Positions 24,981 to 40,268 are shown, numbered from the stretch's first letter. The stretch: 64,000 nt of DNA from an uncultured delta proteobacterium (GCA_963825005.1 CAWGRP010000009.1:24719-88718), one strand, 5' to 3'. Notes: generated by a model from the sequence alone, not told the origin. Numbers and translations are program-made.

Positions 24981-25214
24981 TTTTCGTCGCAGATAAGAGC
25001 GGATAAAAGCTGTGATGAACGCAGATAATTTATCTTTGACCGCCTGTGTGATAAAGCCGCACAGCCGGTCAACCCAGCACCTCCGGTGGGGTAAATTTCA
25101 CTCGCGGAGCGACGGAGTGTGGACAGCATTGACGTTGTATCACAATGCTGCACACGGTCAAACTCATCTGTGTACATCTCTCTTGGCTCTTATCTGCGTT
25201 AATCTGCGATAAAA
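24981..25214 (+). repeat. R240 structured inverted-repeat element, copy 1 (MITE-like)
   Basis: Terminal inverted repeat TTTTCGTCGCAGATAAGAGC / GCTCTTATCTGCGTTAATCTGCGATAAAA. Internal hairpins GACCGCCTGTG...CACAGCCGGTC and GTGGACAGCATTG...CAATGCTG. Confidence 0.8.
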
Positions 25215-25230
25215 TTCTTCATTAGCTAAT

Positions 25231-26578
25231 TCACTTCTTCTTTTTCCCATCGCTCATCTTGCCTCCGGCTGATGTGTATTCTTTTATCTTGTCCTGGCGG
25301 AAGGCTTGCCTGCCCGCGAACCTGGCGGAAGCGCCCAGCTCTTCCTCTATGCGCATGAGCTGATTATATTTCGCTGACGCGATCGGTCCGGCTTGCCGAT
25401 CCCGTCTTGATCTGGCCTGCTCCTGTCGCCACGACAAGGTCAGCGATGAAGGTGTCCTCGGTTTCTCCGGACCTGTGAGAGACCACGGCAGTAAATCCGG
25501 CGTCTGCCGCCATCTGCATGGCTTGCAAAGTTTCGGTGAGCGAGCCGATCTGGTTTACCTTGATGAGGATCGAGTTTGTAACACCCTCCCTGATGCCGCG
25601 GCTCAGTCGTTCTGTGTTCGTGACAAAGAGATCGTCGCCGACGAGTTGAATCGTGTTCCCCAACTTTTCAGTCATCAGCTTCCAGCCTCCCCAGTCATCC
25701 TCCGCCATGCCGTCCTCAATGGAGACGATCGGATATTTGCGGACCCAATCTGCGTAGAAGTTGACCATTCCCGCGGAGTCGTGAGTGCTGCCGTCTGATT
25801 TCTTGAAGATGTATCTCTTCTTCTGATCATCATAGAACTCACTGGCCGCAGGATCGAGTGCGAGGCCTATGTCACGCCCGGGCTTGTAGCCTGCTTTCCC
25901 GATAGCTTCAAGGATCACTTCAATCGCCTCTTCGTTCGATTTAAGATTCGGCGCAAATCCTCCTTCGTCTCCCACGCCGGTAGAATATCCTTTTGCCTTG
26001 AGCACGGCCTTCAGGTTATGGAAAACCTCAGCTCCCATCCTGAGGGCTTCTGCAAAGCTGGGTGCACCGTAGGGGACAACCATGAATTCCTGGAAGTCGA
26101 CGGAGCTGTCGGCATGGGCTCCGCCGTTCATGATGTTCATCATGGGAACAGGAAGCAGTGATGCAGACACACCGCCGAGATATCGGTAGAGTGGTGTCTT
26201 CTGTGATTGAGCTTGGGCGCGCGCGACTGCCATGGAGACGGCCAGGATCGCATTTGCTCCGAGGCGACCTTTGTTTTTCGTGCCGTCCAGTTTGATCATC
26301 TTGAGATCGATCTCCTGCTGCGAAGCAGCATCCATACCCTCGATCCCGCGAGCGATCTCTTTATTGACGTGAGAAGCAGCCTTTTTCGTGCCCTTGCCGA
26401 GATAGCGGTTTTTCTCGCCGTCGCGCAATTCGACAGCCTCGTGAACGCCGGTGGATGCTCCTGATGGTACGGCAGCGCGACCCATGCTGCCATCATCGAG
26501 ATATACGTCGGCCTCAACGGTCGGATTGCCGCGCGAATCAAGAATCTCCCGTCCAATAACTCTTTCGATCTTAGCCAT
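25231..26578 (-). pseudogene. eno: Enolase, frame broken once near the 3' end
   Basis: [22 protein letters not shown]..., SHRSGETED. One extra nucleotide near 25375 separates ...SRTDRV from [14 protein letters not shown] (ORF 25231..25437). RBS AAGGAGGA. Confidence 0.9.
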
Positions 26579-26623
26579 TTTATCTGTCCTCCTTCTTCTG
26601 TATTCCTTCAACAACTGGAAACC

Positions 26624-26864
26624 TTTTCATCGCAGATGAACGCTGATAAGAACTGAGATAAACGCTGATGATTTTTCTTGACCGCCTGTGGGATAAAGCG
26701 CCACAGCCGGTCAACCTGCAGCCCTGCGGGGCAGACGTATTCGTCACACCTTCGCGGAGCGACGGAGTGTGGACAGCATTGAGGCTGTATCACAATGCTG
26801 GACACAAGCATATTCATCTGCGTACATCTCTCTTGGCTTTTATCAGCGTTCATCTGCGATAAAA
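26624..26864 (+). repeat. R240 element, copy 2
   Basis: A 27-nt terminal inverted repeat, TTTTCATCGCAGATGAACGCTGATAAG / CTTTTATCAGCGTTCATCTGCGATAAAA, with the same internal hairpins. Confidence 0.8.
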
Positions 26865-38661: not shown

Positions 38662-38694
38662 TGTCGACTCCCTACCTTCTAGTTAGCGCCCTTT

Positions 38695-39860
38695 TCAGCT
38701 CATCTCCCTCGGCTGCCCGGTCGACGCGATGACGCTGTTCCAGAGCATGTCCTTGGGGTCTATCTTCTTGCGCTGCGACACCGCAAGTGAAATGGGTACG
38801 TGCGTGAACTGGTGGCTCCAGAAGCTGACGACCATGTTCGTTCGTCCGGTCATGCCGGCATGCACTGCACTCTGCCCGAGGAGAAGGCAGAAGGCAGAGT
38901 CATGCGGGTTCGCCGGCGTGCTCCTGATGGCGTAACTGGGATCGATGTACTTGAGGTTTATCTCTATGCCTGCCCGCTGGAAATAATTCTTTATGGCGTC
39001 CCTGAGAAAAATGCCGATATCGCCGTACTTGATGTTTCCTGAAGCGTCCCGCTCGCCGCTCTTCTCCATAAGATTCTGGCCCGCGCCCTCCGCAACAACG
39101 ATCACCGCGTGGCCCCTGCGCTCAAGCCGGTCCCTCAGGGCTGTGAGAAATCCGTCGAGAGTGAAGGGCACTTCAGGAACCAAACAGAAGTTCACGTGGT
39201 TGTCGACGAGGACCGAAAAGGCTGCGATGAATCCCGAGTCCCGGCCCATCAGTTTCACCAGCCCGATGCCGTTGCGCGCTGCCTCTGCCTCGGTGTTGGC
39301 TGCGTAGGTGGCCCGACGTGCCTCGGTAACCGCTGTCTCGAAACCGAAGGTTATCTGGACGAAGGAGATATCATTGTCGATCGTCTTTGGAATGCCGATG
39401 ACGCTCAACGGGAGCCCCCGTCGCATGGCTTCTTCACCGATCTTCTGTGCCCCGCGCAGCGTCCCGTCGCCACCGATGGCGAATAGAATGCCTATCTTCA
39501 GCTCCTCAAGGTAGTTCACCATCTCCGCCGGGTCCTGAGGCCCCCGGGACGAGCCCAGGATAGTCCCGCCCATTTCGTGGATGCGGACCGACCGATTCCG
39601 GTGAGAGCTCAAGCGGCTTGTGTCCGATACCGTGGCACAAGACCCTCGTACCCGAAGCGGAACCCGTAGACCTTACTCACGCCGTAATGGTGGTACAGGC
39701 TCAGGACGATCGAACGTATCACGTCGTTCAGCCCGGGACAGATTCCCCCGCATGTCACAATGCCGCACGCGAGCTGCGACGGATCGAAGCAGATCTTCTC
39801 CCTTGGTCCCGCGACTTCCATCGAAGGCGGATCAATGCGTTTGTCGATCCACGATTTCAT
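38695..39860 (-). pseudogene. pfkA: 6-phosphofructokinase (GGDG motif suggests ATP-dependent), frame broken twice
   Basis: [33 protein letters not shown]. Extra nucleotides lie near 39626 and 39590. The restored sequence is ...[33 protein letters not shown]. Confidence 0.85.
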
Positions 39861-40030
39861 CTCCTCAAGACGCGTGTGATAGAGAACGCGTTCATCATTA
39901 CCGAGTAAAGTGTACGCCCTTCATCGGGGAAGGGATCTTGCATTCGCCGATCCTGGCTATTGTAAAATCGAGCTCAGTGTTGCTCATTAGTCCTCCAATA
40001 CTCCATTCATCAACCGCTTACCAGAAACCG

Positions 40031-40268
40031 CTTCTTATCGCAGATAACAGCAGATAAGAGCTATGATAAGAGCGGATGATTCATTTCTTGACCGCCTGTG
40101 CGATACAGCGGCACAGCCGGTCAACCCCAGCACCTCCGGTGGGGTGAGACACCTGCGCGGAGCGCTGGAGGTGTGGACTGCATTGACGCTGTATCACAAT
40201 GCTGTCCACGGCCACACTCATCTGCGCACATCTCTCATTGCTCTCATCTGCGTGCATCTGCGATAAAA
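40031..40268 (+). repeat. R240 element, copy 6
   Basis: TTCTTATCGCAGATAACAGCAGATAAGAGC...GCTCTCATCTGCGTGCATCTGCGATAAAAA, with the same core hairpins. It ends 9 nt from the fba stop. Confidence 0.8.

Follow-up and report, generated by a model that had tools for sequence, protein, structure and literature searches.

A large mosaic palindromic repeat, probably of the MITE/BIME kind, lying in sense orientation between genes of Syntrophorhabdales

The REP, BIME and REPIN sequences of enterobacteria and pseudomonads are extragenic palindromes within transcription units, built as mosaics of inverted units with variable linkers, and conserved as families over long times. REP units are 20-40 nt long and G+C-rich, have a GTAG-type 5' tetranucleotide and are associated with a RAYT gene. 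The Correia elements of Neisseria and the ERIC/IRU elements of enterobacteria measure 100-160 bp and are found in either orientation; those of the Correia type have a TA duplication and, in addition, an IHF site or promoters. The MIRUs of Mycobacterium are said to be oriented uniformly with their operon, as reportedly described by Supply et al. in 1997, and Chunjie, a MITE from Geobacter uraniireducens Rf4, was reportedly described by Chen et al. in 2008. REP/BIME sequences have been reported to influence how stable an mRNA is and to bind both IHF and gyrase (PMC3184786), while Correia elements are processed by RNase III and ERIC elements by RNase E, which alters the stability of the flanking mRNA (PMC10969869). 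In the cited passages, MIRUs are described as repeats in the spacers of polycistronic operons, co-transcribed with the genes (PMC3184786), and Chunjie as an A+T-rich element with 21-bp TIRs and 9-bp direct repeats (PMC3184786), of 178-235 bp with folds of -98 to -130 kcal/mol, present as near-identical recent copies, some of which overlap genes (PMC3184786, PMC10969869).

In the window analysed here, the whole 64-kb stretch of DNA from an uncultured delta proteobacterium, exactly six copies of one element were recovered by repeat search, MAFFT alignment and nhmmer, with pairwise identities of 74-90%. The six same-orientation copies proposed in the initial annotation are confirmed, with coordinates that fall within 1-2 nt of the alignment cores, and all six lie on the minus strand. 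The hairpin-A word AGCATTGTGATANANCNNCAATGC has six matches, against 0.00 expected. The rest of the window holds no seventh copy, full or partial (nhmmer, E ≤ 0.1); the absence of further copies thus stands, but the remainder amounts to ~49 kb and not 38 kb. In the following list, cores run from arm to arm and are taken from the alignment, the nhmmer envelopes being somewhat wider.

24970-25220 (envelope), 24982-25214 (core), minus strand: copy 1, eno / ferredoxin-AOR gap (nhmmer, 262 bits, and alignment; flanking genes by Pfam)
25164-25214 and 24982-25035, minus strand: 5' arm and 3' arm of copy 1 (alignment)
25119-25155, 25073-25118 and 25036-25072, minus strand: hairpin A, variable hairpin B and hairpin C of copy 1 (alignment)
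26617-26876 (envelope), 26625-26864 (core), minus strand: copy 2, gpmA / eno gap (nhmmer, alignment)
26769-26805, 26715-26768 and 26678-26714, minus strand: hairpins A, B (the longest B variant) and C of copy 2 (alignment)
27656-27914 (envelope), 27668-27903 (core), minus strand: copy 3, pyk / gpmA gap (nhmmer, alignment)
27808-27844, 27759-27807 and 27722-27758, minus strand: hairpins A, B and C of copy 3 (alignment)
29412-29708 (envelope), 29421-29694 (core), minus strand: copy 4, GNAT / pyk gap (nhmmer, repeat search, alignment)
29578-29614, 29531-29577 and 29494-29530, minus strand: hairpins A, B and C of copy 4 (alignment)
29627-29644, plus strand: nested module in the 5' arm of copy 4, inverted relative to the gene strand (alignment columns 99-119)
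29433-29450, minus strand: nested module of copy 4, 3' arm; a TTATC word precedes it and ATC comes next
35039-35320 (envelope), 35050-35309 (core), minus strand: copy 5, ack / POR gap (nhmmer, alignment)
35213-35249, 35163-35212 and 35126-35162, minus strand: hairpins A, B and C of copy 5 (alignment)
35064-35081, minus strand: nested module of copy 5, 3' arm; a TTATC word precedes it
40024-40280 (envelope), 40033-40268 (core), minus strand: copy 6, fba / pfk gap (nhmmer, alignment)
40173-40209, 40125-40172 and 40088-40124, minus strand: hairpins A, B and C of copy 6 (alignment)

The element is ~235-290 bp long, with a G+C content of ~50%. Each copy consists of two imperfectly complementary arms of ~50 nt that close a junction of three hairpins, A, B and C. 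The terminal inverted arms, the two conserved hairpins and the variable middle recognized earlier are all present, except that the loop of hairpin C has 11 nt instead of 10 and that the middle segment, while indeed variable, itself forms hairpin B. Direct reading of the alignment shows that an arm is made of ~4 tandem TTATCnGCG words of ~10.5 nt, the ATC words being spaced by 10-12 nt in both arms. The arms pair in every copy (93% of cells paired). An arm and its subterminal hairpin make up a half-unit of ~110 nt, of which each copy contains two in inverted orientation: hairpins A and C are inverted copies of one another in the alignment, with the loop TGTGATAsAGCG in A and its complement in C, and hairpin C contains near-invariant 1x1 mismatches. 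Between the half-units lies the GC-rich hairpin B, which is exchangeable and exists in at least three alternative versions. Optional modules of ~20 nt are always placed at TTATC words, in both arms of copy 4 and only in the 3' arm of copy 5; the module, CCTTACAGGAnGCTnCGC, measures 19-21 nt in full and has three matches against 0.05 expected. Outside the arms we found a weakly conserved 5' leader, AGCAAAGGAyAGAAT, and a 3' tail, AAGCGGTGTCTGGnAAGCGGGTGGTGAATGAA, which is present in ~10 of 24 copies and complete in copy 6 (...GCGGTTTCTGGTAAGCGGTTGATGAATGG). No ORF is conserved across the copies, and no promoter or terminator consensus was found inside the element. The distances to stop and start codons first quoted for the six copies were based on ORFs that carry frameshifts in the window sequence. 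In the corrected frame, the ack coding sequence extends into copy 5, where the TAA of CAGATAAG in the 5' arm ends it, and pfk probably starts ~50 nt past copy 6 instead of 171 nt.

A hairpin-C retrieval pattern, strand-symmetric and matched on both strands, found three loci among 185,579 species genomes, in two Syntrophorhabdales-type MAGs, as well as 25 metagenome contigs. On 30 contigs of related Syntrophorhabdales, nhmmer delimited ~35 full or partial copies at ~24 sites. The plasmid and viral collections gave no match to the element, and the repeat family is confined to a narrow Syntrophorhabdales clade. Elsewhere in this clade, the element lies in the gaps DctP / DctQ, MCM (methylmalonyl-CoA mutase) small / large subunit, ThiL-like / ThiM and xanthine dehydrogenase / amidohydrolase, as well as between the gene of a LivH-like permease and the one next to it, after SelB and before a NYN gene. 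The neighbouring genes have unrelated functions (transporters, cofactor biosynthesis, purine catabolism and others), and the functional bias that had been expected of them is absent across related genomes. Since the element separates unrelated genes in related genomes, it does not define a central-carbon regulon. The restriction to one metabolic cluster was an effect of viewing a single window, so that the shared regulatory leader proposed for central-carbon genes is refuted by the scattered distribution. Any pathway-specific leader or riboswitch-like element for these genes is highly improbable: the six copies do stand ahead of Fd-AOR, eno, gpmA, pyk, POR and pfk within a single operon, but orthologous central-carbon genes of relatives lack the element, its most variable part, hairpin B, is swapped wholesale, no conserved unpaired core resembling a ligand pocket is evident, and no Rfam family matches. 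The long glycogen-to-acetate operon of this uncultivated syntroph lineage is thus peppered with a lineage-specific repeat and not with a metabolic switch, and a false regulatory annotation of its spacers is avoided.

Orthologous sites are found filled or empty. The gpmA / eno site, filled in the window, is empty in L011, with a spacer of 11 nt; the ack / POR site is empty in L014 and L029; and the same operon is devoid of any copy in L029, L032 and L035. At the pyk / gpmA site, a copy is likewise present in L011, L006/L013 and L027, and an 88-nt arm-only hairpin is what is left in L007/L033/L034; the fba / pfk site is also filled in L008/L014. At the pyk / gpmA and GNAT / pyk sites, the element is kept in several species. 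Some relatives carry another repeat family, made of small sense-oriented hairpin arrays, in the same operon gaps. As close relatives run this operon with empty sites or without any copy, the element is dispensable for it. The copies are 70-90% identical and old, with no sign of recent activity, and it is therefore from the presence/absence patterns that we call the element mobile. We searched 24 copies for a target-site duplication and detected no repeat at a consistent offset, the sole clean filled/empty pair (gpmA / eno) being too diverged to align. In ~400 kb we saw neither an autonomous partner nor any transposase whose ends match, and no match to IS ends was found, which favours the reading in the initial annotation. 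The only transposase nearby belongs to an ISKra4-family IS that splits the L012 copy; it is an unrelated insertion with its own 8-bp duplication, CACACTCC.

The position of the element relative to genes is strictly constrained. At all of the at least 15 sites with co-directional flanks, the element is sense to the genes (~2^-15 under random orientation), which extends the non-random orientation seen in the window from genome to genome; the sample consists of ~30 short contigs from one clade, fetched through one conserved hairpin, so that antisense or intragenic copies of divergent subfamilies could escape, and gene direction and replication direction are not separable in these data. Because the retrieval pattern matched both strands, it could not bias the orientation. 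All copies lie in spacers between genes and leave the genes uninterrupted, as had been noted, the distances to both neighbours being 4-80 nt. Copies at orthologous sites are 77-84% identical; for the same pairs of genomes, the fourfold-degenerate positions in the neighbouring gpmA gene show 53-64% identity. The element, hairpin loops included, is thus conserved ~3x more than fourfold-degenerate sites. As only sense, non-coding insertions are seen and conservation is ~3x that of silent sites, both orientation and sequence matter. The constraint to sense orientation outside coding sequences is visible as a pattern, the cause of which we infer below.

The predicted fold is a four-way junction, with an interrupted terminal duplex of ~50 bp and three hairpins. 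Its energy ranges from -90 to -138 kcal/mol across copies, and that of copy 3 (MFE -97.8 kcal/mol, z = -6.1) is far more stable than its shuffles. Sense and antisense strands differ by only -0.4 +/- 5.4 kcal/mol on average, the sense strand being better in 12 of 24 copies, with G-U counts of 173 vs 155. Conservation is higher in paired columns (0.89-0.95) than in unpaired ones (0.74-0.82). Covariation, in which support for the stems had been sought, does not exceed the shuffle control: nine double-change pairs were counted vs 7.2 expected and 118 of 500 shuffles reach nine, in a comparison whose power is limited by the low variation of the stems. Since the antisense strand folds equally well and covariation is not significant, structure alone leaves the sense-only orientation unexplained. 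In agreement with the initial annotation, which had recognized no named family, the Rfam 15 covariance models gave no match at the gathering score over the whole window and none at E ≤ 5 for the two copies searched, indicating no ribozyme or leader similarity.

The MITE/BIME likeness that had been set aside turned out to be the better classification. The best reading is that of a new family of large mosaic palindromic non-coding intergenic repeats of the MITE/ERIC/REP/BIME/REPIN kind, Chunjie being compared by its description only, and we are confident that we are dealing with a dispersed MITE/BIME-like repeat family rather than with a central-carbon regulator. As in MITEs, the element is small and non-coding (235-290 bp, for less than ~600 bp in MITEs, and no kept ORF), is bounded by terminal inverted repeats (the imperfect ~50-nt arms) and is dispersed in many copies, a given orthologous site being filled in some genomes and empty in others (~24 sites; empty in L011, L014, L029, L032 and L035); ends common with an autonomous IS were not seen in ~400 kb. 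It resembles Chunjie, as known from the published description, in its size class, its very stable predicted RNA fold, its full and partial intergenic copies and its insertion into an operon without breaking it, both hosts being anaerobic and 'deltaproteobacteria' as formerly defined. It differs by its G+C content of ~50%, its composite ~50-nt arms, the lack of a detectable 9-bp direct repeat and the 70-90% identity of copies that never interrupt a gene. With REP, BIME and REPIN sequences it shares the extragenic position within transcription units, the mosaic of inverted units with variable linkers and the long conservation of the family. In contrast, the alignment contains no 20-40-nt unit with a GTAG-like 5' tetranucleotide, no RAYT gene was found in ~400 kb, and the element is 6-10x larger, with a four-way junction and a strict orientation to genes. 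Like Correia and ERIC/IRU elements, it has terminal inverted repeats that would pair in read-through transcripts and is located in a 5' or 3' UTR or between cistrons; it has no sequence similarity to them and is larger and uniformly oriented, with three internal hairpins. Filled and empty orthologous sites, and ends that may overlap neighbouring stop or start codons, as for ack at copy 5, are reminiscent of MIRUs; these, however, are units of 40-100 bp, often in tandem and with small coupling ORFs, whereas here a single large palindrome lacks any conserved ORF.

The best overall explanation, which we consider fairly probable, is that of a dispersed mosaic repeat filtered for the sense orientation and acting on mRNA. 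A non-autonomous repeat, moved by a putative mobiliser, has spread into the short spacers that separate co-transcribed genes in many operons, after which copies were lost, internally deleted, interrupted by an IS or partly homogenized with neighbouring copies. Inside transcription units it would be tolerated or selected only in the sense orientation, the antisense one being presumably polar or otherwise harmful. Read through within the polycistronic mRNA, the duplex and hairpins would fold into a compact four-way junction. If Correia, ERIC and REP/BIME elements are taken as a guide, this structure would be a target of RNase III, an obstacle to 3'-5' exonucleases, or both. The long glycogen-to-acetate transcript would thereby be split into segments of differing stability. 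The cluster of six copies would reflect a permissive, long and probably highly expressed operon together with local copying, and no pathway-specific control. The mRNA-processing or stability role itself, suggested by this analogy, is put forward tentatively; it is what survives, at the level of the transcript, of the co-opted intercistronic RNA element first proposed, whose dedication to central carbon was not upheld. If it holds, the element would determine how strongly the enzymes of glycolysis, pyruvate oxidation and acetate formation, encoded on one transcript, are expressed relative to each other.

A stronger version, in which mobility is only the origin of what has become a domesticated cis-acting RNA punctuating operons (a processing site, a stabiliser/insulator or a self-cleaving motif), seems rather unlikely to us. 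The strict sense orientation at at least 15 informative sites, the ~3x conservation over fourfold sites even in the loops, the spared coding sequence at 4-80 nt from both neighbours, the fact that several species retain a copy at pyk / gpmA and GNAT / pyk and the four-way junction with its near-invariant mismatches in hairpin C all speak for it. They are offset by the dispensability of the element, relatives having empty sites or gaps occupied by another repeat family, by the lack of significant covariation, of functional bias among neighbours and of Rfam ribozyme or leader similarity, by an antisense strand that folds as well as the sense one, and by the inverted duplication of hairpins A and C, as DNA-level symmetry predicts. 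That RNase III, or the junction itself as a new self-cleaving motif, cuts this mobile-derived structure at a fixed position and gives every part of the very long metabolic operons an mRNA half-life of its own is unlikely. Swaps of hairpin B and the optional 20-nt modules would then tune this effect, and the small hairpin arrays of relatives would be an alternative answer to the same need.

Such symmetry also fits a DNA-level platform, in which TTATCnGCG arrays would be docking sites for a nucleoid-associated protein, for gyrase or for a transposase-like protein and would manage supercoiling or recombination where operons are long and busy: ATC words recur about once per helical turn in both arms, structure is equal on both strands, the loop sequence is conserved in inverted orientation, the nested module always sits at a TTATC word, as though recognized and cut, and BIMEs provide precedents (PMC3184786). 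We nevertheless hold this reading to be quite unlikely, as a symmetric DNA site offers no reason for a strict orientation to genes and at no locus is the element linked to a candidate binding protein or to a transposase. The arm words are similar to, yet do not match, the DnaA box, TTATCCACA. Orientation would be accounted for by a relic of replication-coupled single-strand transposition (IS200/IS605-, PATE- or REPIN/RAYT-like), set by the lagging-strand template and only seemingly by the genes, because these are co-oriented with replication; in the window, genes, G-rich strand and elements indeed share one direction. Mismatches conserved in the subterminal hairpins, a target duplication that escapes detection, a conserved asymmetric sequence outside the palindrome and small modules inserted 3' of the fixed pentanucleotide TTATC point the same way. 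This relic is nonetheless very unlikely, since the loops of A and C are complementary and not identical on each strand, unfit for one Y1 transposase at both ends, 100% agreement with gene direction over ~20 contigs exceeds the typical gene-strand bias, and no Y1 or RAYT gene was seen in ~400 kb. As for attC sites of an integron-like cassette array, the likeness of co-oriented genes between uniform imperfect palindromes is superficial and the probability negligible: RYYYAAC / GTTRRRY core sites are absent at the ends in the alignment, 235-290 nt exceeds known attC lengths, the units in between are core housekeeping genes, up to three per unit, the elements split subunits of one enzyme or transporter (MCM, DctP / DctQ), and no integrase or recombinase was seen among the window genes scanned. 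To return to the favoured sense-filtered repeat, an absolute sense orientation and ~3x silent-site conservation are unusual for MITE-like DNA, which makes the family a clean natural test of transcript-level selection on intercistronic palindromes, or of insertion mode.

The pattern of filled and empty sites provides a fine-scale strain marker for Syntrophorhabdales. Within the operon, direct repeats of ~250 bp lie 1-5 kb apart, a setting in which recombination can occur and metagenome bins can be misassembled. Copies 3 and 4, 90% identical overall, share a 91-nt A-B segment that is 96% identical, which, as read from the sequences, is a local mosaic or gene conversion.

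A repeat search of the window revealed six co-linear copies of the element, grouped at 24.9-40.3 kb, and a MAFFT alignment of these minus-strand copies showed long invariant runs. Profiles built from the six copies, and later from 24 copies, gave exactly six matches in the window, with scores of 235-269 bits, and nhmmer detected no seventh copy in the whole 64 kb at E<=0.1. The hairpin-A word occurs 6 times against 0.00 expected. Repeat search, alignment and profile search agree with the initial annotation, which had described six copies of the same orientation and none elsewhere in the window, at coordinates lying 1-2 nt at most from the following arm-to-arm cores, mapped from the alignment:

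24982-25214, minus strand, copy 1, between eno and ferredoxin-AOR
26625-26864, minus strand, copy 2, between gpmA and eno
27668-27903, minus strand, copy 3, between pyk and gpmA
29421-29694, minus strand, copy 4, between the GNAT gene and pyk
35050-35309, minus strand, copy 5, between ack and POR
40033-40268, minus strand, copy 6, between fba and pfk

On the gene strand, the element starts with a weak leader, AGCAAAGGAyAGAAT. Its arms contain TTTTATCGCAGATG…; the 5' arm reads TTTTATCGCAGATGnACGCAGATAAGAGC…GATGTnCGCAGATGAG and the 3' arm ends …ATCATCnGCGTTCATCATAGCCTTTATCCGCTCTTATCTGCGATAAA, after which a 3' tail, AAGCGGTGTCTGGnAAGCGGGTGGTGAATGAA, is present in about 10 of 24 copies. Between the arms lie hairpin A (GTGGACAGCATTG-TGATACAGCGT-CAATGCTGTCCAC), then hairpin B, then hairpin C (TTGACCGGCTGTG-N11-CACAGGCGGTCAA), the last with a near-constant G·G mismatch and a loop of 11 nt: the N10 pattern read initially was unmatched, and one with N11 was matched. 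In the predicted fold, the paired arms form an interrupted duplex of ~50 bp closing a four-way junction, and the minimum free energies of the copies range from -90 to -138 kcal/mol (z = -6 versus shuffles). The alignment of 24 copies shows that each arm carries ~4 tandem TTATCnGCG-type words at 10-12-nt spacing. It also shows that the reverse complement of hairpin C matches hairpin A at 22 of 37 positions, loop TGTGATAsAGCG included, and the element is therefore made of two inverted half-units around B. Hairpin B itself exists in at least three unrelated GC-rich versions (…CCACCGGAGGTG…, …GCAGCGnAGCTGC… and …TCCGCCGnnGGCGGA…).

An optional module of 19-21 nt, CCTTACAGGAnGCTnCGC, is nested in some copies only, in either orientation. 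It always adjoins a TTATC word or its complement, often with a repeated (T)ATC after it, and none was seen outside the element in the sequences examined. Its positions in the window and in related Syntrophorhabdales contigs (L numbers) are:

window 29433-29450, minus strand, 3' arm of copy 4
window 29627-29644, plus strand, 5' arm of copy 4
window 35064-35081, minus strand, 3' arm of copy 5
L004:772-789, 3' arm
L012:2280-2297, 5' arm
L017:8736-8753, 5' arm
L026:2082-2099 and 2241-2258, in a contig with three modules

The construction of the element is therefore mosaic, like that of BIMEs.

Among 185,579 species-representative genomes, the hairpin-C pattern, which is strand-symmetric and matched both strands, was found in only 3 contigs: two belong to Syntrophorhabdales MAG DATFYE01, the third to 'uncultured delta proteobacterium' MFD03726.bin.2.118. 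A further 25 contigs matched among 241 million metagenome records, whereas viral contigs and plasmids gave no match. The family thus exists but has a narrow distribution. In the literature, words of the element sequence matched only by chance. Loci were collected from the pattern hits and from orthologous operons fetched through GpmA homologues, and nhmmer run on both yielded ~35 full or partial copies at ~24 distinct sites. Outside the glycolysis operon, the element is flanked by DctP and DctQ, by the B12-binding and catalytic subunits of methylmalonyl-CoA mutase, by an AIR-synthase-like gene and ThiM, by a TIM-barrel gene and 3-hydroxyisobutyrate dehydrogenase, or by xanthine dehydrogenase and an amidohydrolase; further neighbours are a branched-chain amino-acid permease, SelB, a mandelate-racemase-like enzyme and an NYN-domain gene. 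Since these functions are unrelated, the restriction to central carbon metabolism proposed from the window alone is refuted.

In every copy the forward profile score exceeded the reverse one by ~200 bits, and copy orientation is therefore unambiguous. Every copy is intergenic, typically with 4-50 nt between it and the preceding gene and 9-80 nt between it and the following one. Wherever the flanking genes are co-directional, at 15 or more independent sites, the element lies in the sense orientation, which has a probability of ~3x10^-5 if orientation is random. Ascertainment does not explain this bias, as copies of either orientation would have matched the retrieval pattern. One site between divergent genes (L001) and one between convergent genes (L009) can by their nature give no information on orientation. 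In these data, orientation by gene is not separable from orientation by replication; within the window, genes, G-rich strand and elements coincide in direction. The lack of antisense copies implies either selection against that orientation or an oriented mode of insertion. The L001 copy is the only one with divergent genes on its two sides. There, TTGCTC-N17-TATAAT (L001:2740-2790, minus strand), close to the sigma-70 promoter consensus, lies outside the element, immediately downstream of it, and precedes the NYN-domain gene, whose transcript probably does not include this copy.

Elements at adjacent orthologous sites are 77-84% identical, versus 53-64% for the fourfold-degenerate sites of gpmA (window compared with L011, L027, L013 and L007), so that the element evolves roughly three-fold more slowly than these sites. 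Conservation reaches 0.89-0.95 in paired columns versus 0.74-0.82 in unpaired ones and is weak (0.56) in leader and tail; the invariance of hairpin C is partly due to the retrieval of loci through it. Pairing is possible in 93.4% of cells, and double-change pairs number 9 versus 7.2 in shuffles, a level reached by 118 of 500 shuffles; covariation beyond shuffle level was not found in these stems, which vary too little to show any. When both strands of each copy were folded, the mean sense-antisense difference was -0.4 +/- 5.4 kcal/mol, the sense strand folding better in 12 of 24 copies, with 173 G-U pairs in sense and 155 in antisense. Because this per-copy folding shows no asymmetry, we dropped as predictor-biased the strand-specific fold that G-U versus A-C counts (89 vs 24) on the RNAalifold structure had indicated. 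The palindrome is conserved and both strands fold equally well, so that nothing marks it as an RNA structure specific to the sense strand. What distinguishes the two orientations is asymmetry in the internal loops of the arms, in B, and in leader and tail.

Orthologous operons with 82-94% protein identity differ site by site in element content. The gpmA-eno gap, occupied in the window, is an 11-nt spacer in L011, and the ack-POR gap, also occupied in the window, is empty in L014 and L029. Between pyk and gpmA, the element is full in the window, L011, L006/L013 and L027, and reduced to an 88-nt arm-only hairpin in L007/L033/L034; no copy is present anywhere in the operon of L029, L032 and L035. 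In L012 (274-3201, minus strand), one copy was struck twice by nested insertions. Between its hairpins A and B lies an ISKra4-family IS with a 437-aa transposase (NF033572, 314 bits) and a DUF6788 ORF. The element halves overlap by the 8-bp duplication CACACTCC; the IS is therefore an insertion into the copy, and we rejected it as the autonomous parent of the element. The second insert, in the 5' arm, comprises ~730 bp without recognisable gene and has a duplication of ~GATGAAAC; a partial tandem copy lies upstream of the split copy. Copies are overall 70-90% identical, which argues against a recent burst. The A-B block of copies 3 and 4, which flank pyk, is 96% identical versus 90% overall, and the nearest relatives of window copies tend to be other window copies, suggesting local conversion among them.

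Rfam gave no match at gathering thresholds for the whole window and none at E<=5 for two copies. A promoter or terminator inside the element was rejected, as a consensus scan found none; the TTGACC of hairpin C is not followed by a -10 box at usable spacing. In many copies the first half is spanned by an open frame (…SQMxADKSxERCxQMS…SIVIQRQCCPH…), and about one in two of these copies has a 24-codon ORF in its 3' arm. A small protein was nevertheless rejected: the frame is not kept through B, stop codons are common, and copies of the other subfamily lack the AUG; no ORF is conserved across copies. The CsrA SELEX consensus is RUACARGGAUGU, to which UUACAGGAUGCU of the optional module is close, and some B loops are GGA. 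The idea of a CsrA sponge was dropped, as GGA is not sense-enriched (71 vs 102 TCC) and the module is found in either direction. That the antisense strand causes Rho (rut) polarity is speculation; element composition is symmetric overall (G-C skew +0.03), only the 3' tail being G-rich.

The family is thus a dispersed, non-coding, palindromic and mosaic intergenic repeat that undergoes gain, loss and decay, is strictly sense-oriented and is conserved above the neutral level. No target-site duplication at a consistent offset was found around 24 copies, and no autonomous partner among the collected loci. The MITE/BIME-like elements are the class that suits it best, as a new family, and in the simplest view it is a so far unnamed relative of the classic intergenic palindromic repeats. 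Less probable rivals are a domesticated RNA module, a DNA platform for proteins and a relic of a replication-coupled ssDNA transposon. A pathway leader is contradicted by the data, as is an integron attC site.

As it lies inside operons in the sense orientation, it would be transcribed by read-through. The ~50-bp interrupted duplex and three hairpins would make this mRNA segment a candidate RNase III target or exonuclease block. RNase III cuts such structures in Correia-bearing mRNAs, and REP/BIME block exonucleases (PMC10969869, PMC3184786); we infer the mechanism by analogy with these systems. Of the interpretation first offered, a transcript-level role is plausible, and the central-carbon regulon is refuted by the unrelated neighbours elsewhere.

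Pfam assignments of the flanks gave, on the minus strand and with copies at the semicolons, fba; pfk-pta-ack; POR-DHODH-like-GNAT; pyk; gpmA; eno; ferredoxin-AOR, with amylase, ROK kinase, phosphoglucomutase and glycogen phosphorylase upstream of fba. The genes form a unidirectional string of ~26 kb (window 22735-48620, minus strand) leading from glycogen to acetate, in the order glycogen phosphorylase, phosphoglucomutase, ROK kinase, amylase/debranching enzyme, fba, pfk, pta, ack, POR, DHODH-like, GNAT, pyk, gpmA, eno, ferredoxin and aldehyde:ferredoxin oxidoreductase. The more distant relative L032 has the order …POR-DHODH-gpmA-eno-Fd-AOR-pfk-pyk; in L013, gpmA and Fd have no eno between them. 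The following window genes are each split in two overlapping ORFs:

17911-21154, AcrB
27940-29371, pyk
31416-35014, POR
35408-36582, ack
36579-38661, pta
38695-39860, pfk
40277-41342, fba
41382-42843, amylase

Compared with the uninterrupted orthologues of L029 and L033, the split genes carry indels of 1-2 nt, for example one inserted nucleotide in pyk and insertions of 2 nt and 1 nt in POR. These are likely residual indel/consensus errors of long-read assembly, not eight pseudogenes in one operon; L035 also shows this symptom. Because several flanking genes are frameshifted, some of the distances from stop and start codons quoted initially are unreliable. Frame-corrected ack (window 35309-35420, minus strand) is without the stop used in relatives (…EKARASQQ*) and continues ~25 codons into copy 5 (…KRENFIADVRR*), where a TAA of the 5' arm terminates it. 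The element is thus able to overlap the gene that precedes it and to reshape the 3' end of that gene.

In relatives, these intercistronic gaps harbour a second family of repeats, unrelated to the first, invariably sense-oriented and absent from the window. It consists of tandem 12-nt direct repeats, CT(A/G)GGA(A/C)GA(C/T)CG, with short variable GC-rich hairpins of 13-17 nt as spacers, and ends …CTAGGAAGATGGAAG:

L029:9847-10000, 10748-10865 and 12213-12543, sense strand, second repeat
L033:2775-2998 and 4337-4560, sense strand, second repeat
L035:9712-10000, sense strand, second repeat
L011:~150-220, sense strand, second repeat

Both repeat types coexist in L011 and L033. In the L002 copy (L002:3516-3531), the tip of hairpin B is a 16-nt hairpin, GTCCGCCGTGGCGGAC, identical to one of the small-repeat hairpins, at L029:10781-10796; the two contigs are from one metagenome (Ga0209039). 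The shared hairpin is a hint that the big element and the small repeats draw on one pool of small hairpins.
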